Positions 24,179-45,929 of a stretch of 46,178 bases of DNA are shown in pieces. The stretch's first letter is position 1, and the number at the start of each line of letters is the position of its first letter. A program made the translations under genes and the position numbers. Source of the stretch: a virus (lineage: Duplodnaviria > Caudoviricetes); the IMG/VR virus record IMGVR_UViG_3300033412_000026, positions 1 to 46,178 of that record, one strand, 5' to 3'. The notes beneath the pieces are model-generated. The model worked only from the letters and a program-made list of their open reading frames with translations. It had not been told where the DNA came from and searched no databases.

Positions 24179-24297
24179 TTGCTTCCCTTCTTCTTCATTG
24201 CCTTGAGCTGCGCTGCCTTCTTGACAACGGTCTTGCGAGCCACGGCCTTCTTCATCCTGGCCTTCTCGGCTGCGGTGTACTTCTTGGGGTACGGCAT
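24175..24297 (-). CDS. Lys/Ala-rich basic micro-protein (40 aa)
   Basis: MPYPKKYTAAEKARMKKAVARKTVVKKAAQLKAMKKKGSK, abuts both neighbours. Confidence 0.65.
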   Translation of the reverse strand: MPYPKKYTAAEKARMKKAVARKTVVKKAAQLKAMKKKGSK

Positions 24298-24528
24298 TCA
24301 TGCTCCATACGGGAAGATGCGCTCGATCTGCTCGGCCGTATCGTCATCGATGATGGCCGTAGGTCGTAGCCCGAAGAGGACCTGGAGTCCCCGGATGTGA
24401 GACTTGGTCTCATCGTCCAGCTCGCCAGTCTCTCGTAGGCCGAGGACACGCTGCACGTAAGTGACAGCGTCCCTCTCCTCTTCAGTTGTCACAGCGTAGA
24501 TGCGTCGCGTGTACCAGGCAGGCTTCAT
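24298..24528 (-). CDS. Stand-alone peptidoglycan-binding domain protein
   Basis: AVTYVQRVLGL..TGELD..T...I..LQ..FGL.PT.IID..T PG_binding_1 pattern. Confidence 0.7.
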   Translation of the reverse strand: MKPAWYTRRIYAVTTEEERDAVTYVQRVLGLRETGELDDETKSHIRGLQVLFGLRPTAIIDDDTAEQIERIFPYGA

Positions 24529-24842
24529 ACTCCCACCTTACTCGCAATGCGGTCGACCACGCCGCGTACTCCCTTGACCTCCTCGTGAACCAGCTCCACC
24601 TCAGCGCGCTGAGTTACGAGGCTTTCAAGAATCTCGACCCTTGCTCCGAGGTCAGCCACCTGCCTGTCCTTATCTGCGACCTGCGTGCGAAGCTCAGCCA
24701 CAGCGATCTGTAGCAGCTCCACGGTGTCGATCGAGATCTGGGCAGCCTGACTGTGACCGAACCTCTTCCCCCCCACAAATCCACCGGCAACGCCAGCGGC
24801 CCCTGTGAGGATGGCGATGATGGCATCCATCTCAAGCGCCAT
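24525..24842 (-). CDS. Membrane protein with coiled coil (lysis-associated?)
   Basis: N-terminal TM followed by heptad repeats. Confidence 0.75.
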   Translation of the reverse strand: MALEMDAIIAILTGAAGVAGGFVGGKRFGHSQAAQISIDTVELLQIAVAELRTQVADKDRQVADLGARVEILESLVTQRAEVELVHEEVKGVRGVVDRIASKVGV

Positions 24843-24854
24843 ACTCTCTCCCTG

Positions 24855-26783: not shown

Positions 26784-26793
26784 TGGTTACTCC

Positions 26794-28218: not shown

Positions 28219-28227
28219 GGTGCTCCC

Positions 28228-29157
28228 TTATCCGTTGAAGGTCTGGTAAGACTCGTACAGCCTCTGAAGCCTGGTGCGCTCCTCGTTGAGCCTCTTGGTG
28301 TAGAGGGCCAGGAAGAACTGGGACGTCTGCGAAGCGGCGCTCGTAGGTACGAGCGGTGCCCTCTCAGTAGCCTCGATGGAAGCCTGCTGAAGTCGGGCTG
28401 CCTCGTAGGCAGGAAGGAGTCGCCACGCTGCGCCGTACGTGATCATGTCCACGTAGCGCTCCGGGAAGCCGGTGACAGTCGTGAAGTCATCGGTGTTGTT
28501 CGTTAGTGTGGAAGGGCCCTTCGTGTAACTCACCCGCACGTTCCTTCCGGGAACGACGCGGTCATAGATCTGAAGAGTCTTGCCGGTTGGTGTAGGGGTT
28601 GGCTTGACCTGACCCACGGTGGTGGATGCCATCGGGTTGAAGCGCCAGCTCTGCGCCGGGAACCACACACCGGATGGACCGATGGTGTTGATGGTCACCT
28701 TGTACACGTCATCGACGTCAGCCGGGATCGGGTACTCGTACCTTGCGGAGTTGTACGGGAACTCATACTGAGCGAAGACCCAGAGGTCTGGGTACAGACC
28801 GAGGATGGTGTCGTTGATGGCCTCCTTCACGCGCTGACGCGGGAAGCGAGGATCGTTGGTGACGATGTCGTCGATGTTGTGAGTGGCTGCCGTGGTACCT
28901 GCATACCCGCGCCCATTCACTCCACCCAGCACCATGACGGTACCGGACCCACGGTCGAAGCTCTTGACCTGGATCAGCTCGTCACCGATCTCGATGAGAC
29001 CGCGAGACAGGTTGGTCGCAGTCGAAGGATCCACGGTGAAGGTGGTGTCCGTAGCAGTCACTGCTGCCGTCAGGTACGACACAGACGCCTGATCCTTGGT
29101 GTAGCCGAGTAGCTGCTGATTCACTCGGTCCACGATGTTGGCAAATGTGACTGCCAC
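28228..29157 (-). CDS. Head-to-tail adaptor / tail tubular protein A-like
   Basis: VKEAIND, EYPIPAD, FPERYVDMITYGAAW adaptor pattern. Confidence 0.6.
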   Translation of the reverse strand: MAVTFANIVDRVNQQLLGYTKDQASVSYLTAAVTATDTTFTVDPSTATNLSRGLIEIGDELIQVKSFDRGSGTVMVLGGVNGRGYAGTTAATHNIDDIVTNDPRFPRQRVKEAINDTILGLYPDLWVFAQYEFPYNSARYEYPIPADVDDVYKVTINTIGPSGVWFPAQSWRFNPMASTTVGQVKPTPTPTGKTLQIYDRVVPGRNVRVSYTKGPSTLTNNTDDFTTVTGFPERYVDMITYGAAWRLLPAYEAARLQQASIEATERAPLVPTSAASQTSQFFLALYTKRLNEERTRLQRLYESYQTFNG

Positions 29158-29166
29158 GGTTACTCC

Positions 29167-29544
29167 TTACGGAAGGCGGATGACTGTGATGCCAGCCGTT
29201 ACGCCGATGTTTGCTGAACCATCACCGATGGACCTGACTCCGATGGCAGTAGTGCCGTTCAGGGTCAGGAAGTACTGGTACTCGTACAGGACGCCCAGGA
29301 TTCCACCAGTGGTCAGGGTGTGGTTGACGGCACCAACAAAGAAGTGGCTGTTGTTGGCGATCTGCGGGGTCCCGGTACCATAGGCCAGCCTGGTCACGTC
29401 GATCCTCCAGTGTCCCGCTGGCAGCGTGAGCTGACAGAAGACAGTGTTGGCGACGACTGGGAACTGGAACCCCGCGTTGGTGAGGATGTCTGCCTCGGGG
29501 ATGTACTGAACCATCCCTGTCACGCTTGCATACTGCTTGGGCAT
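29167..29544 (-). CDS. Hypothetical virion protein
   Basis: Beta-rich, in late operon. Confidence 0.7.
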   Translation of the reverse strand: MPKQYASVTGMVQYIPEADILTNAGFQFPVVANTVFCQLTLPAGHWRIDVTRLAYGTGTPQIANNSHFFVGAVNHTLTTGGILGVLYEYQYFLTLNGTTAIGVRSIGDGSANIGVTAGITVIRLP

Positions 29545-29813
29545 TACGCCCCCTTGTACGCCACCCCCGTGGCGTTACTGATCTCTACGGCCTCTTGCAC
29601 CTTGGCCATGGTCGTACCGGCAGGCTGAATCCCCTGGGACCTTGCGTCCCTATACGCCTGGAGTTCGGCGTCCCACGCCTTGCTCTTTCCGGTGTCGCTC
29701 AGGTTCGGGTTGAGCTGGAGATTCTTGCTACGCATGCACTCGCCGAACGTCTTGTGGTCCTTCGTCGGGCACCCACTCGAACAGTGGGTGCCCTTCTTGA
29801 CTCGCTTAGTCAT
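29544..29813 (-). CDS. Hypothetical Cys/His protein
   Basis: CSSGC...H....EC; WDAEL.AY..AR.QGIQP.GT. Confidence 0.75.
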   Translation of the reverse strand: MTKRVKKGTHCSSGCPTKDHKTFGECMRSKNLQLNPNLSDTGKSKAWDAELQAYRDARSQGIQPAGTTMAKVQEAVEISNATGVAYKGA

Positions 29814-30057
29814 TGTCTCCCACGCTGTTCGTGGTGTAGATGCCCTGCTTGTACGAGTCGTGGTCGGAGCCTAGCTCCGCCTGCTGGTGAGTGGCGATGA
29901 CCTCGAAGAGGCGAGTCTCCAGGATCCCCTTCTCGTTGTTCTCCGTGATGGTGGAGTTTCCACCAGGTCCAGCAGGGCACATCGCTCCTGGGCAGCACTC
30001 AGTGTGCCACTGCGGGGAGCAAGGCTGCTTCGCCGGGTCGTAGTACTCGTGAGCCAT
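29806..30057 (-). CDS. Hypothetical protein
   Basis: AAGGAG RBS 6 nt before ATG. Confidence 0.7.
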   Translation of the reverse strand: MAHEYYDPAKQPCSPQWHTECCPGAMCPAGPGGNSTITENNEKGILETRLFEVIATHQQAELGSDHDSYKQGIYTTNSVGDND

Positions 30058-30066
30058 GCTCACTCC

Positions 30067-31098
30067 TTAGAAGATTGCACCCCAACGCGCGGACGCGTTG
30101 GTGGCAGCACTGGATAGGGTGATGGACGCTGGAAGCGTGGTCTGTCCTGCTCCGGAGTCTACGAACCTCGGTGCGCCACCCGAAGGCAGCAGGTTGATGT
30201 TCAGGGCGGAGGCGGAAGTGCCGTTGCCATACAGGAACCTTGGTGGCGTAGTTCCGTTGGTCAGGATCGCCAGGTAGACGTGTCCTGCGGACACGGCGGT
30301 CGGAGTGATCGCCTTGGTCTTGGTGCCGATGGAGGTGAAGTCGCTGTCCATGTTGACCTCCTGGAGCTTGGTACCGGTCGGACCATACAGTCCGATCCAG
30401 TTCTGCCCAGCGGTGAGCGTAGCTCCCGCAGTCTGGACAGTTACCACCAGGTTGGAGATGGTGGTGGCCTGGCGTACAAGGATCTTGCTCAGGTAGACCA
30501 CGCCCGAGGTGCTGATGGCACCATCGGCGTTCAGTCCAGCAGGGTCCTGTGTCCATCCGATGAGCCCATGGTCCTGGGCCTGGAAGTCCACGGTAGCCAG
30601 GTTGGCCAGGTTGACGACCTTGCCGTCAGCCATGCGGATCTTGAGGAATCCACCCTCGGAGTAGATGATCACGCCACCCGTAGGGTTGGCGTTCGGGACG
30701 GCGGTTGCGTCGTCCACTCCGATGATGCCTCCGGTACCGTTACCGAAGTCGGTATTGGTGGAACCAACCTGCATGCCAGTCGTGATGAAGGCGGTCGAGC
30801 TGGTCTGGAGGTTTCCGGTCGGGTTGATGGCGGTACGTACAGTGCCGCTGGAGTTCTTGAACTCGGCCAGGTTGCTCGTTCCGTTCGCCTGAGCGATCAG
30901 CGAGATGCTGGACGGGTTGTTCACGATCAGCAGACCGGTCATGGTGTCGCCGGACTTGCTCACCTTGCTGCTGATGGCAGAGGAGTTGGTCGCGATGTCG
31001 GTGGTGTTCTGGGTGATGCGTGCCTCGTGATCAGAGAACGCAGCATTGACTGGAACGTCCCAGTCGGACGTTCCCTTGGCGATCGGAGTGTATGTCAT
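30067..31098 (-). CDS. Fibre-like minor virion protein
   Basis: WDVPVN, coiled coil, VSKSGDTMTG fibre motif. Confidence 0.75.
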   Translation of the reverse strand: MTYTPIAKGTSDWDVPVNAAFSDHEARITQNTTDIATNSSAISSKVSKSGDTMTGLLIVNNPSSISLIAQANGTSNLAEFKNSSGTVRTAINPTGNLQTSSTAFITTGMQVGSTNTDFGNGTGGIIGVDDATAVPNANPTGGVIIYSEGGFLKIRMADGKVVNLANLATVDFQAQDHGLIGWTQDPAGLNADGAISTSGVVYLSKILVRQATTISNLVVTVQTAGATLTAGQNWIGLYGPTGTKLQEVNMDSDFTSIGTKTKAITPTAVSAGHVYLAILTNGTTPPRFLYGNGTSASALNINLLPSGGAPRFVDSGAGQTTLPASITLSSAATNASARWGAIF

Positions 31099-31478
31099 CC
31101 GCCGAAGCCTCCCTCTCCGAAGCCTCCAGCACCGAAGGTACCTGTCGGGGCGTCGAAGTTAGCCTCGGTCACGAGACCGGAGGCGATGAGTGATGCCTTC
31201 GTGGCGTCATCTACGAGCCACTCGTAGCCACCACGGTAGTAACGCAGGCCCTCGGAGGGCTGCTGCCAGAAGTCTGGATCTCCCCATCCACCTGCTGGTG
31301 TTGGGTAGTTCGTCGCTCCCTGCTCCTCTGTGTATGCGTCGTAACGCACTTCACGCCAGACGTCAGGGGCGATCTCTCGGATGGAGATAGCTCGGTTCAT
31401 CCTGAACCTCTCCATCAGCGGGTTCCACGCGAAGGGGGCCTCAGCCACCGTAGGCGTGGTAAATAGCCAGGTAGCCAA
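31095..31478 (-). CDS. Hypothetical virion protein
   Basis: YYRGG and FGAGGFGEGGFGG; GGAGG RBS. Confidence 0.75.
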   Translation of the reverse strand: MATWLFTTPTVAEAPFAWNPLMERFRMNRAISIREIAPDVWREVRYDAYTEEQGATNYPTPAGGWGDPDFWQQPSEGLRYYRGGYEWLVDDATKASLIASGLVTEANFDAPTGTFGAGGFGEGGFGG

Positions 31479-31491
31479 GGCCCCTCCTCAC

Positions 31492-31812
31492 TCAGTAGCT
31501 ACCGATGACGTGCCACTCGCCACCATCGGAGATGATGACGCAGGCACCTGCGGTTCCGGCCGCACCCACTGCACGAGTGGTTGCGCCGTTGATGGTCTCA
31601 GATCCAGCACCGTCGAGGGTGACAGTCTGAGTTGCCGTACCATCACGCTTGATGATGTACGTACGGCCGGGCTGTACGGAAGCTACAGCCGGAAGGTTCA
31701 CGGTCACGTTCGCCGCTGGTGCCTCCACGCTCAGAACGTAGTCGTTGTTCGTGAGGGTGGTGGTCGCAGACACGACACGGACGGTGAAACTGGTGTTGTC
31801 GAAGCCAGACAT
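31492..31812 (-). CDS. Capsid decoration / fibre-like protein
   Basis: VTVNLP...GRTYIIK...ETING...IISDG..W; AAGGAG RBS. Confidence 0.7.
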   Translation of the reverse strand: MSGFDNTSFTVRVVSATTTLTNNDYVLSVEAPAANVTVNLPAVASVQPGRTYIIKRDGTATQTVTLDGAGSETINGATTRAVGAAGTAGACVIISDGGEWHVIGSY

Positions 31813-31832
31813 TGTTCTCCTTGGGATGTAAG

Positions 31833-31857
31833 AAAAGGGGCCCCCGAAGGGGCCCCT
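31833..31857 (-). terminator. Intrinsic terminator after major capsid gene
   Basis: AGGGGCCCC-TTCG-GGGGCCCC-TTTT on minus strand. Confidence 0.9.
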
Positions 31858-31862
31858 AGTCA

Positions 31863-32825
31863 TTAGGCGTTGACCGCGATCGAGCTTGCGCTCTCAGCAC
31901 GGATCAGGGCCTCCTGGCGGTAGAGGCTCCAGCCTGCGACACCGTACCAACCGAGAGGCTGGAAACGAGTCAGCTTGTCGACGACCGGTCCACGCACAGT
32001 GTGGAACTCCTCCGCCACAGCCTCGGCCAGGGCCTGCTGTCCGGTGAAGTACGTGTCGTACACGTCGACGGTGCCACCAGCACCGGCGTCCGTCTGGATA
32101 CGAGTACGTGGAGTCTCGATGAAGACTGCACCCTCGTACTCTCCGATCTCTCCTGCCCAGATGTTGTTGGCAGAAGAGTAGCTGTGCGGCAGACGCCATC
32201 CGGCGTCTCCGGTCTCAGCGCGGAGGTCGTGAGAGACCTCTGGGTGGATGTACGCGGTGAAGAAGCTGCCCTTGTTCGGGTGCACCTTGTTGGTACGGAG
32301 CTTCGCTACAGCCAGACGTACCCATGCAGAACCGAACGTGTCGGCTGCGGTGGTACCTACAGTGGTCTGCGCACCGTTGTACACGGGACCAGAGGCACCG
32401 TTGTCACGGATGTAGTTCGTTCCGCCCGAAAGGACGTTACGAACGATGGTGTCGACAGAGTCGACAAGGTTCCACGCCACCTGGTTGACGAGACCAGCGG
32501 TCACGTCGGTGAAGCTGAACAGGTCCAGCTTGTTGGAGACGAGGATGCTGTTACCGTACTCGTTCAGAGTGACGGACACAGTAGTCGGGTTGCCAGCGGC
32601 AACCGCGTCAGGGTCAACCAGCTCATTGAGCGGGGTGATCGCCTGCGCCAGGTCCTGGTACAGGCTGAAGACGACGCTCGAACCAGGCATTGCCTGCTGT
32701 ACGGGACGCTTGTCAGCGATCGTACGGAACATCGGCTGTGCACGGAGCGCGAACTCCAGTGCACGGTCGTACGTGGTCTGGACGAGATTGCTCATCGCCG
32801 CAGTACCGGTGAAGGCGTTAGCCAC
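31863..32825 (-). CDS. Major capsid protein (N4-gp56-like)
   Basis: TL.EYG, AYIHP....DLR, GEIG.YEG..F.ET, DKL.R....GWY; GTG start with GGAGG. Confidence 0.9.
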   Translation of the reverse strand: MANAFTGTAAMSNLVQTTYDRALEFALRAQPMFRTIADKRPVQQAMPGSSVVFSLYQDLAQAITPLNELVDPDAVAAGNPTTVSVTLNEYGNSILVSNKLDLFSFTDVTAGLVNQVAWNLVDSVDTIVRNVLSGGTNYIRDNGASGPVYNGAQTTVGTTAADTFGSAWVRLAVAKLRTNKVHPNKGSFFTAYIHPEVSHDLRAETGDAGWRLPHSYSSANNIWAGEIGEYEGAVFIETPRTRIQTDAGAGGTVDVYDTYFTGQQALAEAVAEEFHTVRGPVVDKLTRFQPLGWYGVAGWSLYRQEALIRAESASSIAVNA

Positions 32826-32849
32826 ACCTACCTCCAAAGAGGATGGGGC

Positions 32850-33329
32850 TTACTTCATGGTCTGCCATGCAGACAGTAGGCCCGCTAGATCAGTAGCGTC
32901 GTTGAGACGAGCCTGTGCAGCCTCGAAGTTGCCGAGCGGCTGACCCTGCTGGCCAGCCTCCTGCATGTTCTGCATCTGCGCTGCAACCGCAGGGTCGATA
33001 CCCTGCGGAGTCTCAACTAGTGGGGTGCTGCCAGGCGTCTGCGCCTGTCCGCCGCCGAATAGCGACTGCATCTGAGTCGCCCACTCACGGACCTTGGTCG
33101 GGTCCGCCTCTCCCTTGTACTGCTCAGCGGCAGCAGCGGGAATGCCAAGCTCGCTGAGGGCCGCACCCACAGACTGATCACGGAGCTGCTTGTTGACGGC
33201 GGCCAGACCGTCTGCTAGCTCCTTGTTCTGCTGCTTCAGTGCGTCGTACGCGTCACGAAGTGCCTTGGGGCCGGAGTTGTCGTTGTTTCCGCCCAGGTCG
33301 TTTGCGTCCTCGATACCCCAGTTGCTCAT
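32850..33329 (-). CDS. Scaffolding protein
   Basis: Directly upstream of capsid; KALR..Y coiled coil; start trimmed to MSNWG. Confidence 0.7.
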   Translation of the reverse strand: MSNWGIEDANDLGGNNDNSGPKALRDAYDALKQQNKELADGLAAVNKQLRDQSVGAALSELGIPAAAAEQYKGEADPTKVREWATQMQSLFGGGQAQTPGSTPLVETPQGIDPAVAAQMQNMQEAGQQGQPLGNFEAAQARLNDATDLAGLLSAWQTMK

Positions 33330-33448
33330 GCGATCTCCTAGATTAGGTAGCGCACGCCAAAAGCCACGGCTAGGGAACCGTGGCTTCGCTCGTGCTATGT
33401 GTGTGCTGGTCTTCACTACGGTACTGCCTGCCAGCAAGGGCGTACCGG

Positions 33449-33519
33449 TACCCAGTGACGGAATCGAACCGCCGTCTGCACTTTGTAAGAGTGCGGCCCT
33501 CCCATTGGACGAACCGGGC
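33449..33519 (-). tRNA. trnV: tRNA-Val(TAC)
   Basis: GCACT-CTTACAA-AGTGC; T-loop TTCGATT. Confidence 0.9.
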
Positions 33520-33521
33520 AT

Positions 33522-33587
33522 AGCCTCGCAGGGAGTCGAACCCTGATCTCAAGTTTAGGAGACTTGACTGCGTCCTACACCGAGGCA
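33522..33587 (-). tRNA. trnR: tRNA-Arg(CCT), D-arm reduced
   Basis: CAAGT-CTCCTAA-ACTTG; ~66 nt. Confidence 0.75.
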
Positions 33588-33588
33588 G

Positions 33589-33660
33589 CTCTCCGAGCTG
33601 GGATCGAACCAGCGCTCTGACGGTTAACAGCCGTCTGCCTTACCACTTGGCCATCGGAGA
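33589..33660 (-). tRNA. trnN: tRNA-Asn(GTT)
   Basis: GACGG-CTGTTAA-CCGTC; G73. Confidence 0.92.
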
Positions 33661-33679
33661 ATAAGAGCTTGCGCTCCAG

Positions 33680-33754
33680 AGCCTGGTGCCGGAATCGAAC
33701 CGGCGTTCTCCTGTTTACTAGACAGGTGCATGGGCCAACGTGTGCTAACCAGGC
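33680..33754 (-). tRNA. trnT: tRNA-Thr(AGT)
   Basis: CCTGT-CTAGTAA-ACAGG; GCC/GGC acceptor, U73. Confidence 0.88.
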
Positions 33755-33777
33755 AGAGCGGCACCTGAGTGCCGCAG

Positions 33778-33849
33778 TACCCCACGGGGGAATCGAACCC
33801 CCGACTCCTAGGTGAGAACCAGGTGTCGTTGCCACTAGACTAGTGGGGC
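33778..33849 (-). tRNA. trnE: tRNA-Glu(CTC)
   Basis: CCTGG-TTCTCAC-CTAGG. Confidence 0.9.
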
Positions 33850-33853
33850 AAGG

Positions 33854-33927
33854 TGATCTAGGTGGGACTCGAACCCACATCCTCAACGGTTAAGAGCCGA
33901 CTGCACGCCCAATTGTGCGACTAGATC
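33854..33927 (-). tRNA. trnK: tRNA-Lys(CTT)
   Basis: Loop CTCTTAA; acceptor GATCTAG/CTAGATC. Confidence 0.9.
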
Positions 33928-33940
33928 ATTGTGTTACAAG

Positions 33941-34012
33941 TACCCAACCAAGGAATCGAACCCTGATCTGACAGTCCGTAGCTGCCTGCTCTGTCCTTTG
34001 AGCTAGTCGGGC
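33941..34012 (-). tRNA. trnR: tRNA-Arg(ACG)
   Basis: GGCAG-CTACGGA-CTGTC. Confidence 0.92.
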
Positions 34013-34014
34013 GG

Positions 34015-34085
34015 GGTGACCAGAGGGAATCGAACCCTCGCTACGGGGGACACAACCCCGAGTCCTACCACTGAACGATGGTCAC
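34015..34085 (-). tRNA. trnH: tRNA-His(GTG)
   Basis: CGGGG-TTGTGTC-CCCCG; C73; G-1 not encoded. Confidence 0.9.
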
Positions 34086-34087
34086 AG

Positions 34088-34158
34088 TACCAAGCCATGG
34101 AATCGAACCATGTCCCCCGGGTTTTCAAGCCGGTGCTCTACCAGTGAGCTAGCAAGGT
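34088..34158 (-). tRNA. trnF: tRNA-Phe(GAA)
   Basis: Loop TTGAAAA; two U.U mismatches in acceptor, C.C at 31-39. Confidence 0.82.
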
Positions 34159-34160
34159 AT

Positions 34161-34380
34161 GTGAGAGGCGGGACGCTACCCGCAACCGGAGCCGAGTCAT
34201 TCAGCCAATGAGTTATCTCCGGAGCCACGTGTTTGCCGCTAAGCGCGTCTTCGGTCCCCCGCTAAGGTTCCCTCCATCCACGACCCTCAGCACTTGCCGT
34301 CAGGTCGTGGCGTTCTCTAACGCCACGTGCACAATCGCTCTGACCCTACTCGTAGGTCAGACTCGATTCTGTCACTCTCC
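34161..34380 (-). ncRNA. Structured ~220-nt ncRNA inside tRNA array (tmRNA-like features)
   Basis: Ends pair (GAGAG/CTCTC) next to T-arm-like GCGGG-TAGCGT-CCCGC; several internal hairpins; no credible CDS. Confidence 0.55.
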
Positions 34381-34402
34381 GAGCAGGTGCCCCCGCTCGT
34401 TG

Positions 34403-34476
34403 TAGTCCATGAGGGATTCGAACCCATCACTTGCTGGTTCCTAAGACCAGTGCCTCTACCGTTGGGCTAATGGACC
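34403..34476 (-). tRNA. trnL: tRNA-Leu(TAG), no long variable arm
   Basis: CTGGT-CTTAGGA-ACCAG; A73. Confidence 0.85.
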
Positions 34477-34498
34477 AAAAGCCTGAGATTCAGGCCAG

Positions 34499-34570
34499 CG
34501 CACATGAAGGGGATCGAACCCTCGACCTACCGCTCGACAGGCGGTCGCTCTACCATTGAGCTACATATGC
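34499..34570 (-). tRNA. trnD: tRNA-Asp(GTC)
   Basis: ACCGC-CTGTCGA-GCGGT; G73. Confidence 0.92.
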
Positions 34571-34573
34571 AAG

Positions 34574-34648
34574 TGGTACGGCTGCACGGAGTCGAACCGT
34601 GATCCCCTGCGTATCAGGCAGGCACACTAACCGTTGTGCTACAACCGA
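34574..34648 (-). tRNA. trnI: tRNA-Ile(GAT)
   Basis: CCTGC-CTGATAC-GCAGG; CCA encoded. Confidence 0.9.
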
Positions 34649-34649
34649 G

Positions 34650-34717
34650 TGGAGATTCGGGGAATCGAACCCCGCTGAGTCGGTTTGCAAAACCAACCTG
34701 TCACCTTAACAACCCCC
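34650..34717 (-). tRNA. trnA: tRNA-Ala(TGC), D-arm reduced
   Basis: Loop TTTGCAA; G3.U70 and A73 retained; 68 nt. Confidence 0.82.
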
Positions 34718-34719
34718 AG

Positions 34720-34787
34720 AAGCCCAGTCGGATTCGAACCGATCCCGCCGCTTTGCAGGCGGCGTCCTCACCAAGAGGATCAGGACC
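34720..34787 (-). tRNA. trnC: tRNA-Cys(GCA), atypical D-arm
   Basis: GCCGC-CTGCAAA-GCGGC; U73. Confidence 0.82.
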
Positions 34788-34790
34788 ACG

Positions 34791-34874
34791 TGGTTGGACG
34801 TCTCGGAATCGAACCGAGCAAGCCGCGTCGCGACGCAGGGGTTACAGCCCCGCTTGTGTCCCAGCACCCATCCA
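34791..34874 (-). tRNA. trnY: tRNA-Tyr(GTA), D-arm reduced
   Basis: Loop CTGTAAC; long variable arm; CCA encoded. Confidence 0.85.
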
Positions 34875-34875
34875 G

Positions 34876-34957
34876 CGGAAGAAGGTGGAGTCGAACCACC
34901 GGGCGTTACCCCGAACTCCCTTAGCAGGGGAGGTGGCCGCCACCGGCCACATCTTCC
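34876..34957 (-). tRNA. trnS: tRNA-Ser(GCT), 6-bp D-stem
   Basis: CTCCC-CTGCTAA-GGGAG; variable arm; G73. Confidence 0.85.
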
Positions 34958-34959
34958 AG

Positions 34960-35044
34960 AGGAAAGTAGAGGAATCGAACCCCCAGGCTGTCACACCCGG
35001 CACGGCTTTCTAGACCGCTTGCCCACCATTGGACGCTACCTTCC
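34960..35044 (-). tRNA. trnS: tRNA-Ser(AGA)
   Basis: GCGGT-CTAGAAA-GCCGT; long variable arm; U73. Confidence 0.85.
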
Positions 35045-35048
35045 ACAG

Positions 35049-35120
35049 CTGCTCCCCCAGGATTCGAACCCAGTACAAGTGGTCCAGAGCCACCTATGTT
35101 GCCGATTACACCAGAGAGCA
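35049..35120 (-). tRNA. trnQ: tRNA-Gln(CTG)
   Basis: GGTGG-CTCTGGA-CCACT; U1:A72, G73. Confidence 0.92.
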
Positions 35121-35125
35121 TAGAG

Positions 35126-35195
35126 CACGCCCGGCAGGAGTCGAACCCGCAGACCTTGGCTTTGGAGACCAGGTCAGTACCACTACCTCGAACGC
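35126..35195 (-). tRNA. trnW: tRNA-Trp(CCA), D-arm reduced
   Basis: Loop CTCCAAA; G73. Confidence 0.82.
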
Positions 35196-35196
35196 A

Positions 35197-35267
35197 TGGC
35201 TCGTCAGGGATTCGAACCCTGGTCTTCAGGTTATGAGCCTGACGTGGAACCTCTCCACTAACGAGCA
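35197..35267 (-). tRNA. trnM: tRNA-Met(CAT) (elongator/initiator/Ile2 unresolved)
   Basis: TCAGG-CTCATAA-CCTGA; 1:72 mismatch. Confidence 0.85.
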
Positions 35268-35268
35268 G

Positions 35269-35339
35269 AGCCCTGTGCGAGAATCGAACTCGCAACCTCT
35301 GTTTGGAAGACAGGTATGTTACCACTACACCAACAGGGC
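35269..35339 (-). tRNA. trnG: tRNA-Gly(TCC)
   Basis: Loop CTTCCAA; U73. Confidence 0.92.
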
Positions 35340-35341
35340 AA

Positions 35342-35423
35342 GTCACGAGCGGCGGGTTGCTGAATCCCCACACCCTAGACGTGGTCCAGGGGCCAGGAGT
35401 TGCACCTGGGATCTCCGCTCTCG
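35342..35423 (-). ncRNA. Circularly permuted tRNA-like module (YrlA/Y RNA-like)
   Basis: GAGCGG-AGATC-[CCAGG-TGCAACT-CCTGG]-CCCCTGG-A-CCA-CG-TCTAGGG-TG-[D-like arm]-CCGCTC. Confidence 0.65.
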
Positions 35424-35494
35424 TCTCTCTGGAAGGAATCGAACCTTCTTTGCCTGTTCCCAAAACAGGTGTGGTGCCAATCCACTACAAAGAG
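35424..35494 (-). tRNA. trnP: tRNA-Pro(TGG)
   Basis: CCTGT-TTTGGGA-ACAGG; C1:G72, A73. Confidence 0.9.
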
Positions 35495-35540: not shown

Positions 35541-36713
35541 TTACCTTGCTCCGCCGCGAGACGCAAGTCCAGAGCGGGCACCACCTGCGGCACCACTGAA
35601 CGTGCCCTTCTCACGGTTGATCAGGGTCTCACGCTGCTTGCTTGCCTCGGTCCCGCCGACGAACACGTCCTCCTCGGCCTGGCGCTGAGTCCAGCCGCCA
35701 CCGTAGATCTGGCCCAGGGTCTTGAGGTCACTGAACTCGTCAGCGATCTTGGCGTATCCCTGAGCTGCCTCCTCGCGACCGATGCCAGAGGTTGCCAGGT
35801 TCTCTGCGTACGTCTTGTCGAAGTCCAGGCCACGCTGTAGCGCCTCGGCTCCGATGGCTGCGGTAGCCGCAGACTTCTGTAGGTACGGAAGGGCTCGGTC
35901 AGCGTCCAGGAAGTACGCTGCCAGCTCTCCATCCGACAGGCCCATCTGCTTCAGGGCTGCCTTGTACGCAGGGTTGGCGAGCGCAGTGGCCTGCGTCGCC
36001 AGATCCACACGAGACTGTAGCTCCGTGGGGCTCATGTCTCCGCTGATCCAGCCGGTGAAGTCGGAGGCGGAGTCGTAGAAGCCCTCGGGAAGTCCCGACT
36101 GCCTCATGATCTGACGGTAGCTGTTCTCCACTGCGATGTACTCAGCAGGCGACAGTACGGACATGCCCGCCTTGAGGCGGGCCTCGTTCGCTGCGAACCT
36201 CTTCTTGTACTCAGGAGTGTCCTGGAGCAGGATGGAGATGGTGTCAGCGCCGTAACCGTTCTTCACGTACTCGTAGATCTTGCCAGCCAGACTGCCGAGA
36301 CCGTACTGCTGGAACAGGGAGTTGAGCGCCATGAAGGCGTCCCTGTTCTCTCCGGTCAGGAGCTTGTCGTACTGGCCAGTCGACTCGTAGTACTTGTTCT
36401 GGACGGACGTGCGCTTGGTGGTTGCAGCCTTGAGCTGTGCGTCCAGCCTCTTGAGCGTCATCTCCTGGAGGGCGATGTTGCGCTTGTCGGCAGCGGTTGG
36501 CTTCTTCTTGGCCTTCAGTGCCTTCAGCTTGGCGTTGGCCGCAGCGGTCTGCTTCTGAAGGACCTTGAGCTGTGCGTCGAGAGCCTTGAGCTGGATCTCA
36601 AGGGATGCGTTGCTGTCCACCTTGCCTGGCAGGGTTGTCCTGGCCAGGCCGGAAGCGGAGGCAGCAGTCCTCTGAGCCATCAGCTGATGGATCATGTCCT
36701 GCCAGTTAGCCAT
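35541..36713 (-). CDS. Putative internal virion (ejection) protein
   Basis: Helical with coiled-coil N-terminus; TPEYKKRF..N..R...G...LSPAEY...E..Y motif. Confidence 0.75.
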   Translation of the reverse strand: MANWQDMIHQLMAQRTAASASGLARTTLPGKVDSNASLEIQLKALDAQLKVLQKQTAAANAKLKALKAKKKPTAADKRNIALQEMTLKRLDAQLKAATTKRTSVQNKYYESTGQYDKLLTGENRDAFMALNSLFQQYGLGSLAGKIYEYVKNGYGADTISILLQDTPEYKKRFAANEARLKAGMSVLSPAEYIAVENSYRQIMRQSGLPEGFYDSASDFTGWISGDMSPTELQSRVDLATQATALANPAYKAALKQMGLSDGELAAYFLDADRALPYLQKSAATAAIGAEALQRGLDFDKTYAENLATSGIGREEAAQGYAKIADEFSDLKTLGQIYGGGWTQRQAEEDVFVGGTEASKQRETLINREKGTFSGAAGGARSGLASRGGAR

Positions 36714-36722
36714 CGATACTCC

Positions 36723-38024
36723 TTAGTACTTGAATCCGAAGTCTGCCAGGACCTGGTGGCCCACCTGGAACAGACTGTCCTGAGCGTTCTTCGTCTTCTT
36801 CCAGCGAGGGTCGCTGCGCAGTTCGTTCTCGAACTGCCACAGAGGCTTGGCCTCCTTCTGGAGGTTCCCTGGGTTGGTGTAGTTCAGGGCCTTCTTGATC
36901 GTAGTGTCAAACAGGTTGACGCTGCCCTGGGGCAGCTCCAGGATCTGAGCCATGGACTGCATGTATGGTGAAGCGATGTCGGCCACGGACTGACCGGCCT
37001 CGATCTGCTTGGTCCACTGAGGGAACGAAGCCTTCGCCTTGTTCATGATCTCAGACTTGTAGTCCTGAATGGTCGCCACTCCACGCAGGATGTTCCTCGC
37101 CCTGTCCGTGTACCAGGTGTCTCCGAGGGAGACGCCCATGGAGTATGCGTACTCACGCATCTCGTTGATTGCCTCGCCGCCCTCGCCCTGTAGCGTCTCG
37201 CCCTTGAAGGAGACGTACTGACCGAGGTAGTAACGCAGCTGACTCTCGTCCCATCCGAGCGCCACCATGTTGTAGGCGGCCTTGTCCAGGTACTTCTGGA
37301 TGTCCTTAGTCATGATCATGCCCATCTGATTGGCGAGCTGCTTGATCTTGACCTGAGCCTGAGACATCTCCTGCTTGGCGGTTGCCGGGTCAGCCTTGAG
37401 CTGGAGTAGCCACTCCCTCTCGTCCTTGCTGTGCCCCTTCCACCACTTCGTATTGCGCAGCTTGGCCTGGAACTTATCGGCGCTCCATCCTCCAGCGACA
37501 GCGTCCTGGAACAGCTTCTTCAGCTCCTTGTTGGAGTTCAGGAAGCTGGAGACGAAGCCGTACTGCTCCGCTAGCTCTGCGCTTGATAGCTTTGGCGTGG
37601 CCGTACTCCCTGTCGAGAAGTTGGAGGATGACCCTCCAGATGGATACTTGTATGCCTTGTTGATGACCGAGTCTACGTAGCCCTTGATGGACGGGCCACC
37701 AGGCTGTGACTTGGTGGACATGTGCAGGTTCGGGTTACCCGAATACCAGGCGCTCGCCGCTCCGCGAGCGCCGTACTTGTTGTAGTACGACTGGAGCTTG
37801 CCCCTCGCTACAGCTTCCTGCGCCTTGGGGTTGTTCAGGTACTGCTGAGGAGTCAGGCTCTTGCCGTAGTACTGCTTGGTCCAGCTCGGGATGTTGAAGT
37901 CCATGACCTGGTACTTACCGTAGGCGCGGTGTCCATTGACCCATACACCCACGGCATTGTACCTGCCGTTGGACTCCTGCTCAGAGATGGCAGAGAAGAA
38001 CTGCTCGAAGGTCGGCTGTCCCAC
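36723..38024 (-). CDS. Internal virion protein with N-terminal lysozyme/lytic transglycosylase domain
   Basis: QES.G.Y, AYGKYQ.M, AWYSG, YV..V; C-terminus paralogous to next gene. Confidence 0.85.
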   Translation of the reverse strand: MGQPTFEQFFSAISEQESNGRYNAVGVWVNGHRAYGKYQVMDFNIPSWTKQYYGKSLTPQQYLNNPKAQEAVARGKLQSYYNKYGARGAASAWYSGNPNLHMSTKSQPGGPSIKGYVDSVINKAYKYPSGGSSSNFSTGSTATPKLSSAELAEQYGFVSSFLNSNKELKKLFQDAVAGGWSADKFQAKLRNTKWWKGHSKDEREWLLQLKADPATAKQEMSQAQVKIKQLANQMGMIMTKDIQKYLDKAAYNMVALGWDESQLRYYLGQYVSFKGETLQGEGGEAINEMREYAYSMGVSLGDTWYTDRARNILRGVATIQDYKSEIMNKAKASFPQWTKQIEAGQSVADIASPYMQSMAQILELPQGSVNLFDTTIKKALNYTNPGNLQKEAKPLWQFENELRSDPRWKKTKNAQDSLFQVGHQVLADFGFKY

Positions 38025-38025
38025 C

Positions 38026-39327
38026 TTACTGTCCTCCGATCATCCCCATGTCCTTCAGGACCTTGAGGCCAGTAGCCATCGCTCCATCCTGAGCGCCCTT
38101 AGTCTGCCTCCAGCGTGGATCATTCCTGATGAGCTGCTGGAACTGTGTCTGGTCAAGCCCCACGGGCTTGCCCTGACTGTTGACGCCATTCAGGGCCCGC
38201 TTGATGAGCGGGTCCGTCAGGCTGATCTTGGTGTACGGAATCTCCAGATCCTCCGCCATGGTCTGCATGTACGGAGAGGCGATGTCCATCATGGTCTGCC
38301 CAGCCTGGAGCTGCTGAGTGTAACCGGGATAGAGGCTGATCGCCTGGTTGGTGATCTGGTTCTTGAAGTCCTGCTCGGTAGCCATCCCCCTGGCGATGAG
38401 CTGTGCCTGGTTCTTGATGGCCTGCTTGTCGACGGACACGCCGTTCGTGTAAGCGAACTGGCGGATCATGTTCTCGTACTGACCGGCCTCGCCGTTGAGG
38501 GTGCTGCCGTTCTTCTGGAACTGAATGTATCCACCGAGCACGTTACGCAGTCCGGCCTCGTCAAGGCCGGTGGTCAGGACCTGCTCGACCACCTTGTTGA
38601 GCTTGTTCGGCGGGATGGCTGCGCCCATCTCCGCCGCTAGCTGCTGCACCTGAACCTTGACCGCAGAGACCTTGGCGTTATATGTAGCCGGGTCAGTCTG
38701 CTTCTCCATCTGGGCCTTGCGCATGGTGTCCGAGTTCTTCTTCCACCACTCGGTGTTCCTCAGCTTGGCCTGGAACTTGTCGGCAGACCAGCTACCGTCC
38801 ACAGCCTCATCGAAGAGGCCGCGTAGCTCCTTGTTGGACTTGAGGAAGCCGTACGCCCAGCCGTACTCGGCTGCCAGCTCCTCTGGGCTGAGCTTCTTGG
38901 TGTCCGTTGGATCCCAGTCGCCAGCCTTGCCTCCGCCCTCGATGCCGCTTACGCGGCGTCCGCCCATGAAGGCGTTCTGGTAGTAGCCGGAGGTGAGGGA
39001 GACGATCTCCACGTTCTTGCCAGGGCGGGGAGCATGGATCATCTTGCCACCACCGAGGTAGATCCCGACGTGGTCGGGACCCTTGACGTTCGGGTTGGTG
39101 TCGAAGAAGACCATGTCCCCAGCCTGAAGCTCGTTCATGCCGACCGACTTGCCCTCACCGATCTGACTGTACGTGGTGCGAGAGACGTTGATGCCGAAGT
39201 GCTTGTAGACCTGCTGGACAAGGCCGGAGCAGTCCACTCCACCGGACAGGGAGTTGCCGCCCCACACGTAGGGCGTGCCGGTCCACTGCTTAGCCCAGTC
39301 AGCTAGCTCTGCTCCGTTGATTGCCAT
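38026..39327 (-). CDS. Internal virion protein with N-terminal NlpC/P60 peptidase
   Basis: GTPYVWGG, DCSG, GDMVFF, HVGIY, MIHA. Confidence 0.9.
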   Translation of the reverse strand: MAINGAELADWAKQWTGTPYVWGGNSLSGGVDCSGLVQQVYKHFGINVSRTTYSQIGEGKSVGMNELQAGDMVFFDTNPNVKGPDHVGIYLGGGKMIHAPRPGKNVEIVSLTSGYYQNAFMGGRRVSGIEGGGKAGDWDPTDTKKLSPEELAAEYGWAYGFLKSNKELRGLFDEAVDGSWSADKFQAKLRNTEWWKKNSDTMRKAQMEKQTDPATYNAKVSAVKVQVQQLAAEMGAAIPPNKLNKVVEQVLTTGLDEAGLRNVLGGYIQFQKNGSTLNGEAGQYENMIRQFAYTNGVSVDKQAIKNQAQLIARGMATEQDFKNQITNQAISLYPGYTQQLQAGQTMMDIASPYMQTMAEDLEIPYTKISLTDPLIKRALNGVNSQGKPVGLDQTQFQQLIRNDPRWRQTKGAQDGAMATGLKVLKDMGMIGGQ

Positions 39328-39330
39328 GCC

Positions 39331-40173
39331 TTAGCTTCCTCCACCGATCATCTGCATCATCGCATCGAAGTACGTAGTCGCTGCCTGGTAGGCACCGAAC
39401 TCCGGATCCCTCTTGACGTCCTCGACTGCCATGAGCTGACGAGCGCCCTCCTTGACTCCACCCTTGGTCGTACTGGACTGGCCAGTGACCGTGTCGCCCA
39501 TGTAGTTGGTCGTCTGGGTGGTGACGGTTGGGTTCGCCTTCTCGTAGGCATTCAGCGCCTTCTGGAAGGCGCTGATCTCAGACTTGGTCGGGTCACGTCC
39601 CAGTAGGGACTGAGCCGCCTGAAGGAAGATCGCATGAGCGTCCTCCCTCGTGGACATGTCGTAGGCGGTGCTCGTCTGAGTCACCGAGCGAGGCGTGTTC
39701 AGGTATGCCTCGCGCTGCTTCATGTCCTTGGCCAGGATGTCCCAGGGTGTCATGGAGTTGCCAGCGGCGTAGTACGCCGCTGCCTGCTGGGCGTATGAAG
39801 CCCACATCCCCGCGATCTGGGAATCCTGCATTCCGTTGGTGTCGTACCCAGCCAGGTTCAGCTGGCTCAGGAACTTGTCCCGAGTCTTCTGATCCCAGTT
39901 GTAGTACTGACCGGCCACCTGCGAGAGCGTGGCCGTCTTGGCTCCGAGGAGCCTCTCGTAGTACTTCGGGTCGGTAGAGCCGACGTTGAAGTGCTCGGGC
40001 AGCGTCTTGTTGCTGTACCCGAGGAACACGAGAGGATCCTGTGCGGATGCCGACTTCTTGGGTGCGGACCCGGCCGCAGCACTCTTCACCGCATCAGAGA
40101 AGGACTGCTCCTTCTTCTTCTGGGTTGGAGAGCCGAGACCGGTTCCACCACCTACTCCATCGCCGTCAGCCAC
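39331..40173 (-). CDS. Putative internal virion protein
   Basis: A/Q/T-rich, LLGRDPT motif, in ejection cluster. Confidence 0.75.
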   Translation of the reverse strand: MADGDGVGGGTGLGSPTQKKKEQSFSDAVKSAAAGSAPKKSASAQDPLVFLGYSNKTLPEHFNVGSTDPKYYERLLGAKTATLSQVAGQYYNWDQKTRDKFLSQLNLAGYDTNGMQDSQIAGMWASYAQQAAAYYAAGNSMTPWDILAKDMKQREAYLNTPRSVTQTSTAYDMSTREDAHAIFLQAAQSLLGRDPTKSEISAFQKALNAYEKANPTVTTQTTNYMGDTVTGQSSTTKGGVKEGARQLMAVEDVKRDPEFGAYQAATTYFDAMMQMIGGGS

Positions 40174-43100
40174 TTACGCCTCCTGCCTCAAGACTGTCCA
40201 TCATTCCGATTCCAGGCTGCTGTGGGGCAGCCTGCTCACCGATGATCGAAGCGTCACCGAAGAGAAGGTTCTGCTGCTCCTCCTCGTCGGCCTTCGTGTC
40301 GAGGTTGAAGCCCATGTCCGTAGCGAAGTACCTGCTGTGGACCCAGGAGAACTTGGTGTCCTGCTCCATGAGCTGCATCACCATGTCATCCCAAGAGGTC
40401 TTCAGGTCGTTGTTCGACTGAGCAGTGATGTCCGCAGATCCACCCTCCTGGTCGCGCTGAGCAAGCACTGCCTGCATCTGTGCACGGTAGGTGAGGTAGG
40501 TCTTCATGGAGTACACGTCGGAGCGCTGGCCGACAGTGCCGTCAGGCAGTGCGGCCTTTGCCCAGATCTCAGGGTCACTCACGATCTTCGACCACTTCTG
40601 AGCGTTGATGTCATACTTCGCCTTGTCCATCTTACCGAACTCACGAGTCCACGCCTCGTTGTACCACTTGTTCGGCTCGCCGTTCAGGGTCGGAGAGGTA
40701 AGCACGGTGATGGCCGCCTTGCGCATGGCCTCAAGATCCTCGGCTCCGTCGTCGTTGTACGACGCCAGACCTCGATCGAACAGGTCAGCGTTGACCATGT
40801 CCATGATGGAGTTGTACTGCTTCCATCCACGGTCGATCTTCGCTGCATCCATGGCCTCGCGAGCCGACATGTTGCTTCGGTCCGGAGTGTTCGATGCGGG
40901 GTCTACGGAGTGGGACTTCTGGTAATAGAATGCCCCGTCCGAGTATACTCCATCACCCTCGGATCCGACTACTGCACCAGCCCACTCGGGGCCGAGGTCG
41001 CCAATCAGATCCTGGTAGTGCTTGGACATCTTCACGCTCTCCGCCGTGGGGCGGAGACCGCTGTTGTTCTTGCTCATGGACTGAGAGAACAGGTACAGGC
41101 TGTCGCCGTACTTGTCGTAGAACTTCTCGTCCGCAGAGTTGGGGTCCAGCTTCTGTAGCCTCTGGAACTCGTCACGGAAGTACTGGTACGGATCCTGGCC
41201 GTTCACGGAGAACGGAAGCCCGAAGGCTGCCGCAGTCCTGAAGATGGTCCAGCGATCGGCCCTGTCCTTCAGCTCATCCCAGGTGGGCTCAGTGTCGCGC
41301 AGCCCCTCCTCGTACTTGTAGTTCTCGACCTGCATCATGTAGAACAGCGCACGCTGCTTGGTCTGGCCCATGTCGTCATTCGCCTGAGACAGGCGCTGAC
41401 CGGTGGTCGGGTTGACGAAGTTGGTCCAAGAGTCCTGCGGCCCGAACGGCAGGACACCCATCTTCTTCGACCAGTCGGCGAAGCCAGGGTCATCCTGTGC
41501 GAAGTGGTTGGCTGCGATCTGGACGTATGGTCCAGCGCCAACCGGAAGTGCACCGTCACCGTTGTTCAGGACCAGCTCAAGGCTGGACATCGGAACGACG
41601 AACGAGGCATCCTCGTCAAGACCAAGGGCCTTGTTGAGCTTCTTCCCACCCAGGTACTCGGGAACCTGGATCAGCATCTTCCTGTCCGTGTACGAGGTGA
41701 GCTTACGCTCACCCGTCAGAGGGTCAGTGCTGTATCCGGCACCGTCGACCGGGTTACCGTCCTGGTCCACCACGAGACCGGCGCGAGCTGGTGCTCCGTA
41801 GACCTGAGCCACATGAGGCAGAACCTGCGGCTTGTCCGAGATGATCCTTGCCCAGCGGTTCCAGCTCTCCTGCTGCGCCCCGAAGAACGCGCCGAAGTTG
41901 CGGAGCATGTAGCTCATCTTGGACTCGGAGTCAAGCGTGAAGGTGAACTTCTTGACATCGTCGAGCGCACCCTTGCGGGCGTTCTCCTCCATCGCCTTGC
42001 GCATAGTGTCGTCAAGGTGGGTTACACCCTGAGCGCGCATGATGCGAAGCTGGTCAGCCAGGTGAGCCTTGTAGCTCTGGCCGAACAGCGGGTGGCGAAG
42101 GAACTTCTGAGCGGGCAGCTGGTTCGCCCACTTGTAGAAGCTGTTGATGCTGGAGTTCATGAGCTGCGCGACAGGGCTGGTACCCTCCGCGTACCTCCAC
42201 GTCTCACCGTTGACCATCGGCCTGTTGGCGAGTGGCGTGTCCTTCAGTAGCTGGGTGATGCTCTCGCCCTTGGCTGCTGCGGCCCTGATCTGATCCATGC
42301 CTGGAAGGGCAGGGTTCATCACGTGGTCCACCTCGGCCTTGATGAGGCGAGCCTGCTCATCCACGCTGCGAGCGGAAGGCTTCACGTCGTGAGCGTAGCG
42401 TCGACCCTCTGGGGTCGACCTCATCCAGTGAGCCAGCTCGGATTCGGACTTGCCAGCCATTGCCAGCTTGCCGACCTCGGACTGAGCGATCTGACGGGAG
42501 ATGACACGCTCCCACGCCTGTAGGTGCTTCTCGGCTCCGTGAGTCACGGGGTCGATGTGCTCCCAGTCGCGACGACGAACCTCCTTCAGGTACCAGTCGG
42601 TCTGGGTTCCCATCAGGTTGAACATGTTGCGACCACCGCTGGAGAGGTCTGCGAACAGCTCTCCCTGCTGGCCTCCGAAGTACGGAGAGAAGACCTCGCG
42701 GCCGATCCTCACGTCCTTCTTGGATGCACCAGTCGCGGCAATGGCAGACAGGTTCGCGTGCTCGTCACGCACGCGCATGGTGTCGTCAATCAGAGTGGTT
42801 AGGTCATCCTCAAGTGAGGTGACGTCCTGGCCCTTGGCCTTCCCTCGGGTGATCTGCGCCTTCAGGTTGGCCTGCATGGTTGCCATCTGGCTGAGCTGAG
42901 TCTCCTTGTTGGCCATGTCCAGCTTGAGCTGAGCCGTCCTGTTGCGACGGATCGTTGCGTTGAACATGTCCTTCATGCCGTCAGCCGTACCGGAGGCGGT
43001 GCGCATCAGCATGGCAGCCCCACCGAAGCGGGCTACCTGACCAAGGAAGTCGTCGGCCAGCGCCCTCGGCGCGTAGCCGATACGGAACAGCTGAGCGAAC

Positions 43101-45920: not shown

Positions 45921-45929
45921 GGTATCTCC

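Follow-up and report, generated by a model that had tools for sequence, protein, structure and literature searches.

What a phage of 46 kb gains from readers for all 20 amino acids is the question raised by a cluster of transfer RNA (tRNA) genes in IMG/VR virus record IMGVR_UViG_3300033412_000026, analysed here over its whole 46,178 nt (the window). The window is that of a Streptomyces cluster BF (Beephvirinae) podophage, with 98.5–99.2% identity to Dennebes, reversed and opened at another point, and carries 22 tRNA genes on the minus strand at 33447–35494. The answer towards which we lean is that this array is a tRNA set built for coverage and that late translation depends on it. The late-strand genes are nearly without codons that the set is predicted to leave unread, so that late translation is likely to run mostly on phage tRNAs; the purpose is probably insurance against host tRNA depletion.

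All 22 genes are recovered by ARAGORN, with the anticodons and the distribution of U, A, G and C at wobble position 34 (U34, A34, G34, C34) listed in an earlier note on this DNA. In an Rfam search with fast filters 15 of the 22 reach the RF00005 gathering score, and in an E-value search a tRNA-clan model matches all 22 positions, several of them weakly (Tyr, E=2.1); relaxed ARAGORN runs, with many spurious hits in coding genes, were disregarded. Each family box has one reader, with U34 in Val, Ala, Gly, Pro and Leu and A34 in Thr, Ser and Arg. The split boxes use exclusively G34 or C34 (C34 for Gln, Lys, Glu and the AGR codons of Arg), and UUR has no reader. Under four-way wobble the set reads 53–54 of the 61 sense codons, leaving seven without a reader (TTA, TTG, ATA, AAA, AGA, CAA and GAA), or eight with CGG if Arg(ACG) is deaminated. 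The earlier list of uncovered codons (UUA/UUG, AAA, GAA, CAA and AGA) was correct but incomplete, lacking AUA and, in the event of deamination, CGG. Its comparison with the minimal sets of mitochondria and Mollicutes is apt for the number of genes (about 22) and for the lone U34 or A34 reader per family box. Those sets read all of their own sense codons, with modified U34 in the A/G-ending split boxes; the phage set has C34 there, and the likeness ends with its 7–8 unread codons.

For codon usage, 68 Dennebes gene models were transferred to the window and the 28 late-strand genes (gp1–13 and gp36–50) compared with the 40 others. When late-gene usage was set against the codons covered, a check proposed along with the original idea, the late genes proved poor in uncovered codons: the seven readerless ones make up 18 of 8186 late codons (16 GAA, 2 CAA), vs. 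84 of 5059 in the other genes (p=7.5e-20). TTG is absent from 586 late Leu codons (11 of 365 in the others) and CGG falls to 13/289 from 54/226, with smaller drops for ACG (147/606 late vs. 97/289) and TCG (72/363 vs. 84/219). The genes for the major capsid protein, scaffold and endolysin have no uncovered codon and no CGG. With four-way reading and inosine at position 34 (I34) of the Arg tRNA, 8155 of the 8186 late codons (99.6%) can be read. A separate difference concerns termination, TAG being the stop codon of none of the 28 late genes and of 10 of the 40 others.

The relatives of the window provide a natural control. A capsid search gave 270 viral relatives, of which the best 80 were taken. 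Array status was readable in the 61 of these loci with both flanking genes (18 with 18–24 tRNAs, 43 with 0–4), and removal of 17 near-duplicates left 15 array and 29 tRNA-poor loci for comparison on orthologous late genes. Uncovered codons have a median of 6.6 per 1000 in array loci and 22.8 in tRNA-poor ones, at matched median GC content in third codon positions (GC3; 0.73 and 0.72, respectively). At GC3 of at least 0.72 the ranges do not overlap (1.5–8.8 per 1000, n=9, vs. 15.0–27.1, n=13); below 0.66 the array values are 8.4, 11.7, 11.9 and 28.0, vs. 17.1–45.5 in five tRNA-poor loci. TTR accounts for 15/4760 in array carriers and 369/6745 in tRNA-poor relatives, and CGG for 122/2897 and 642/4021. 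When 59 codons are ranked, the eight with the strongest depletion in array carriers are the very eight that the set cannot read; the naive chance of this match is 4.5e-10, a figure that takes no account of relatedness or of the wider fluctuation of rare codons. At the other end of the ranking, 11 of the 12 most enriched codons are Watson-Crick partners of phage anticodons. Base composition runs across this division, with A-ending CTA, CCA, GGA and GTA enriched and G-ending TTG and CGG purged. Most array carriers group in one clade of the capsid tree. Over its 60 rows the array label changes at least four times, for which gene exchange may partly account, and two array loci placed among tRNA-poor relatives (L042 and L068) are still codon-purged.

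Early and late genes were compared in 16 whole records. Early genes have 39–42 uncovered codons per 1000 in three uncultured array genomes and 39–50 in seven tRNA-poor ones. For late genes the figure is 1.6–4.0 in six named phages and 17.5–34.6 in the seven tRNA-poor genomes; the three uncultured array genomes have 11.7, 20.0 and 29.0. Since early genes match and late genes are lower in array genomes, the effect is late-specific; it is strong in the Beephvirinae and weaker outside them.

The array itself is well conserved. In the Dennebes record these 22 genes are already annotated, with gp13 on one side and the scaffolding gene on the other, and anticodons are identical across the 13 arrays compared (the window and 12 named phages). 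Of these, eight give 22 tRNA calls; in three the count is 21, and the gap shows a gene resembling Tyr or Phe; Manuel has 20, having lost both Ser genes, and Abafar 14, lacking eight. In five relative loci Leu(CAG) replaces Leu(TAG). Over 22 arrays, positions that we take to be aminoacylation identity positions are kept: U1:A72 in Asn (22/22) and Gln (21/21), G73 in Asp (21/21), G3.U70 in Ala (21/22) and U73 in Gly and Thr (22/22). The CCA end is mostly not gene-encoded, and the sole Met tRNA has an unpaired 1:72 position in 20 of 21 arrays and no fixed G:C run in its anticodon stem.

The mechanism proposed would start from this single anticodon per codon box, common to the relatives. The array would be co-transcribed with the late genes, and host enzymes would cut out the tRNAs, add CCA and charge them. 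Unmodified U34 and A34 would then read whole family boxes (superwobble, for a predicted modification state), and host TadA would give I34 in Arg(ACG), with CGG left unread. The observed purge of TTA, TTG, ATA, AAA, AGA, CAA, GAA and CGG from late genes would be the next step. The selective pressure would be a loss of host tRNAs under some conditions, most likely when host defences cut them, and some host tRNA would still be required. A promoter scan of 33200–36000 found no sigma-70 sites, and its three terminator-like hits are all T arms, at chance level.

I34 does not read CGG, and Mollicutes with TadA and a lone Arg(ACG) deplete this codon too (PMC3711424). The collapse of CGG beside a modest fall of ACG and TCG therefore fits deamination of the Arg tRNA alone, and host TadA likely converts only this one. 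A phage-encoded TadA was sought in gp58 (22108–22500), which scores 18.5 bits with the TadA model (cut-off 150), has dCMP (deoxycytidine monophosphate) deaminases as its best structures and is present in four of seven tRNA-poor genomes; it is read as a dCMP deaminase not tied to the A34 tRNAs. S. albidoflavus has no MnmEG homologues and xm5s2U is not confirmed there (PMC12772374). The missing MnmEG could leave Gly(UCC) free for four-way reading. It also makes the reason first offered for C34 and G34, avoidance of xm5s2U modifications, unfit for the host genus as examined.

Several observations weigh against dependence of late translation on the array. “Late” was assigned by strand and position. 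Standard wobble covers just 5740 of the 8186 late codons, the other ~30% depending on four-way wobble or host tRNAs, and even with four-way reading and I34 in Arg full coverage extends to only 14 of the 28 late genes; GAA or CAA is retained in 11 of the 28, terminase and portal included. C-ending codons stay common in U34 boxes (GTC 237/535, GGC 278/761 in late genes), implying either efficient four-way reading or persisting host tRNAs, and are just mildly lower there in array carriers than in other relatives. Late genes of tRNA-poor relatives also lie somewhat below their early genes, so that part of the effect is general, and one locus (L033) has 28 uncovered codons per 1000 with an array present. 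Relatives with Leu(CAG) use CTC and CTT heavily, non-CTG codons making up 139/340 (L017), 166/278 (L024) and 213/330 (L030) of CTN; these contigs are incomplete, and a further Leu gene is possible. Abafar, a virulent broad-host-range isolate (PMC11536984), keeps the codon purge with 14 array tRNAs. The relatives are not independent, and no signs of host tRNA loss were obtained.

Some of these points are what pure supplementation, the main rival, would predict: the host pool stays intact, the array adds one economical tRNA per box, and late codons drift towards abundant tRNAs. Leftover GAA and CAA, common C-ending codons, the Leu(CAG) swaps and the losses in Abafar and Manuel would all follow. 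Adding tRNAs to an intact pool fits less well with the anticodons chosen, which in seven of the eight family boxes pair neither by Watson-Crick rules nor by G:U wobble with the codon that late genes use most (the exception is Arg(ACG) as I34). TTG and CGG are purged despite dedicated host readers; each of six Streptomyces genomes has its own readers for TTG, TTA, CGG, AGA and GAA; Thr(AGT) and Ser(AGA), both used in the array, are missing from all six (PMC4932002). Supplementation alone is held to be possible, with a good deal less than even probability.

A stricter version, in which host tRNAs are destroyed by the phage and only a self-sufficient, modification-light set serves late translation, was that of the earlier note and now seems improbable. 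It would accommodate the 99.6% coverage and the fully covered capsid, scaffold and endolysin genes. Self-sufficiency is not supported, given the readers for GAA or CAA required by 11 late genes, the 14 tRNAs of Abafar, the loss of both Ser genes in Manuel and the CTC and CTT of the Leu(CAG) variants, and is strained by a single Met(CAU), which may serve initiation or elongation. Destruction of host tRNA by the phage is not borne out either: no candidate tRNA nuclease was identified among the window proteins searched, and none of the window proteins could be shown to occur in all array carriers and in no other genomes. As a candidate for a gene travelling with the array, gp61 appeared array-specific by tblastn, yet a profile finds it in five of seven tRNA-poor genomes (an atlas search returned no family). 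What survives of the proposed replacement pool is a coverage-built set, co-adapted late genes and an effect that tracks the presence of the array. An origin of the purge in GC content, high expression and shared ancestry, with no part played by the tRNAs, is very improbable: the purged codons are mostly A/T-rich, array carriers come mainly from one clade and tRNA-poor genomes show a late drop as well, but late GC3 is below early (0.77 vs. 0.83), G-ending codons are lost while A-ending ones rise, the gap persists at GC3 of at least 0.72, and L042 and L068 show the purge among tRNA-poor relatives.

Besides its tRNAs the array holds two structured units that the earlier note missed (35340–35422 and 34159–34401); a 23rd tRNA-shaped element lies at 16982–17054 (Table 1).

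Table 1. Features of the window (gene numbers as in Dennebes).
Feature	Position	Strand	Remarks	Basis
tRNA array, 22 genes	33447..35494	-	Between gp13 and scaffolding gene, late strand	
tRNA-Pro(TGG)	35423..35494	-		ARAGORN
Circularly permuted tRNA-shaped RNA, 83 nt	35340..35422	-	YrlA-like, unannotated	
tRNA-Gly(TCC)	35268..35339	-		ARAGORN
tRNA-Met(CAT)	35197..35267	-	Sole Met; 1:72 unpaired; anticodon stem without run of three G:C	
tRNA-Trp(CCA)	35125..35195	-		ARAGORN
tRNA-Gln(CTG)	35048..35120	-	U1:A72	ARAGORN
tRNA-Ser(AGA)	34959..35044	-	Anticodon not in six Streptomyces genomes	ARAGORN
tRNA-Ser(GCT)	34875..34957	-		ARAGORN
tRNA-Tyr(GTA)	34791..34874	-		ARAGORN
tRNA-Cys(GCA)	34719..34787	-		ARAGORN
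tRNA-Ala(TGC)	34649..34717	-	G3.U70; D arm reduced	ARAGORN
tRNA-Ile(GAT)	34574..34648	-		ARAGORN
tRNA-Asp(GTC)	34498..34570	-		ARAGORN
tRNA-Leu(TAG)	34402..34476	-	Variable arm short	ARAGORN
manA-like structured RNA, 243 nt	34159..34401	-	Unannotated	Fold, covariation, RF01745 alignment of relative
tRNA-Phe(GAA)	34087..34158	-		ARAGORN
tRNA-His(GTG)	34013..34085	-		ARAGORN
tRNA-Arg(ACG)	33940..34012	-	I34 via host TadA likely	ARAGORN; CGG purge
tRNA-Lys(CTT)	33852..33927	-		ARAGORN
tRNA-Glu(CTC)	33777..33849	-		ARAGORN
tRNA-Thr(AGT)	33679..33754	-	Anticodon not in six Streptomyces genomes	ARAGORN
tRNA-Asn(GTT)	33588..33660	-	U1:A72	ARAGORN
tRNA-Arg(CCT)	33521..33590	-		ARAGORN
tRNA-Val(TAC)	33447..33519	-		ARAGORN
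Late-strand genes gp1-gp4	213..5093	-	Terminase, endolysin, portal	Dennebes numbering
Late-strand genes gp36-gp50	23981..33329	-	Scaffold, major capsid, holin; uncovered codons purged	Dennebes numbering
Late-strand genes gp5-gp13	35541..46145	-	Uncovered codons purged	Dennebes numbering
23rd tRNA-shaped element	16982..17054	+	Early region, between WhiB-like and exonuclease genes	ARAGORN

The 83-nt unit has the order T arm, acceptor hairpin closed by a loop, D arm, with its paired ends where a tRNA has its anticodon arm. Complete copies occur in 10 of the 13 arrays. Twelve distinct versions keep the T stem and closing stem with compensatory changes, and a pattern scan found the unit at 11 viral loci, of which the two beyond the arrays already compared are BF arrays. 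With the YrlA family (RF02553) it shares the T arm, closed acceptor stem, D arm and permuted order, and the Percastrophe copy aligns to YrlA over its full length. The best RF02553 score is 35 bits, against a gathering score of 69, and the window copy is unmatched. The 5' end has an invariant CGAG, short of the full GNCGAAN0-1G motif; unlike YrlA, the unit has no long Ro-binding stem. YrlA RNAs were defined beside Ro60 genes (PMC4201824); here no Ro60 gene was found, the 67 window proteins giving no TROVE match. The unit resembles the tRNA-like domain of YrlA, and it is not assigned to that family; it may be a tRNA-shaped decoy or binder with no cleavable anticodon loop.

The early-region element, which is labelled Pro, Leu or OTHER in relatives, has a variable GC hairpin for an anticodon arm. 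That it adds a reader for Pro or Leu was considered and rejected, the loop varying among relatives and the window copy having G at position 33. The element is likely not decoding, and may be a processing signal or another mimic without an anticodon.

The 243-nt unit has a better fold than all of 200 shuffled versions (z=-4.4). Seven of the 13 arrays contain it, behind Leu, Glu or Asp; Abafar holds a 3' stub. A covariation structure, derived from the same seven sequences that it describes, has 79 pairs, of which 18 show double changes; 99.5% of its cells are paired. Against manA (RF01745) the RosePharie copy gives a full-length alignment at 43.4 bits (E=2.9e-10; gathering cut-off 55.2), and the window copy has no match to RF01745 up to E=10. 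Aligned features include the manA-type 5' hairpin, GrGAGUG-type motif, 3' hairpin and closing stem. A pattern made from the 3' part found 65 viral loci. Of 20 that were tested, 10 are canonical manA above gathering, and three of the 65, with canonical-type sequence, likewise lie between tRNAs. A six-pair contact of the third loop with the 3' domain is paired in 40 of 40 cells over the seven sequences, with double changes in two of its six pairs, and sits where canonical manA (L139) has a complementary pair. First described as a riboswitch candidate of marine phages (PMC2864571), manA has variants that form 8-, 10- and 60-mer cages, one via an L3-L8' kissing contact (preprint 10.64898/2026.07.01.735769). 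Judged by position, the third-loop contact may be equivalent to that one. In contrast to manA proper, the phage RNA has a core ~45 nt longer, extra hairpins and a score below gathering, and it occurs in a soil actinophage, flanked by tRNAs, with a tRNA downstream instead of a coding gene for which it could be a 5' untranslated region.

GenBank has no feature over the manA-like RNA in any of 17 matches. The R1 model places manA-like copies solely in array loci (four full and one stub, among 94 sources), apart from a longer, distant one at L173. This last (L173:309-625) is GC-rich, with a 291-nt core and no tRNA called nearby, and bridges the BF form and canonical manA. A transfer-messenger RNA, RNase P RNA or intron was rejected, with no matching Rfam family. 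RNA contigs span most of the 243-nt element in six of the seven RNA runs examined (four studies), although DNA carry-over is possible in such contigs and uncovered parts prove nothing. Three contigs end at 34393 (two studies), two extend into Leu, and one run, of unrecorded type, continues across; the ends at 34393 give a weak hint of a discrete 243-nt RNA.

Other features of the locus were noted. Hairpins and motifs in the leader of the scaffolding gene (33330–33446) are found again in tRNA-poor relatives, and RNA contigs from the scaffold-capsid region stop at 33383–33438 in several runs. Over 77 bases Lys(CTT) has 100% identity with a tRNA of the large Streptomyces phages Tomas and Naboo, which suggests that such genes are exchanged among groups of phages. 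The distant relative L068 has a 24-gene array in another order (L068:7264-9389). To the 22 anticodons of the window it adds Ser(CGA) and another Tyr, and it too holds the permuted tRNA-shaped element. Several relatives have a conserved 65-nt unit after Arg(ACG) that the window does not have (L004:1828-1892, L007:1617-1681, L011:1503-1567); by eye a pseudoknot is possible, and it may be a small ribozyme or processing element. ORF (open reading frame)-like inserts within two arrays (L030:7544-8007 and L021:8730-9101), one behind a broken duplicate of the start of the Gly gene, look by eye like homing endonuclease insertions. An ArdA-like anti-restriction gene (window 10943–11509) is present in seven of nine array genomes and none of seven tRNA-poor ones, and gp88 (8070–8768) in eight of nine and none of seven, distributions that relatedness may explain. 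A DNA mimic could set off tRNA-cutting defences.

The BF tRNA cassette and a capsid-codon correlation have been published (PMC9753666, PMC13097060), and the cassettes of Dennebes, FlowerPower, Stella, Manuel and Abafar have the same locus and anticodons in near-identical order. The one-per-box logic, the eight-codon purge, the tRNA-poor comparison and the two extra RNAs are not reported in the available part of PMC9753666, nor is Streptomyces mentioned in that of PMC13015707. Late-gene adaptation to phage tRNAs has been argued for Shigella phage Sf14, with 26 tRNAs (PMC12482277), a large set has been tied to late translation in the Vibrio phage of Yang et al. (as cited in PMC12482277), and evasion of anticodon nucleases has been argued for mycobacteriophages (PMC10264068). 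In these systems, mycobacteriophage C1 among them, late genes likewise suit the phage pool better than early ones, and host tRNA loss or anticodon nucleases have been proposed as drivers. They differ from the present case, with its one anticodon per box, 46-kb genome and orthologous control with and without an array; C1, as far as PMC10264068 was available, also shows no codon-frequency difference and avoids the Ser(AGA) used here. The literature searched, a scope with most subscription papers outside it, yielded no account of the eight-codon purge in these phages, nor any of manA-like or YrlA-like RNAs there. What the analysis adds is the late purge of eight codons, the comparison of array and tRNA-poor relatives and two unannotated RNAs, in a cassette that was itself already annotated.

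A bolder picture, which we consider rather unlikely, is that the Beephvirinae shift late infection to their own 22-tRNA, four-way-wobble system with a 53-codon code, the same transcript carrying a cage-forming manA-type RNA and a Ro-independent, anticodon-less decoy that would counter host tRNA-targeting defence.

Why phages carry tRNAs is a long-standing question, for which the BF family is a rare controlled case, with orthologous genomes with and without the set. Late genes that drop exactly the unreadable codons lead to sharp predictions on four-way wobble in Streptomyces and on whether host tRNAs are lost. A manA-like RNA, whose family has no assigned function and forms cages in vitro, is now placed, together with an orphan YrlA-like RNA, in cultured phages of laboratory hosts, where natural deletion variants make both genetically testable.

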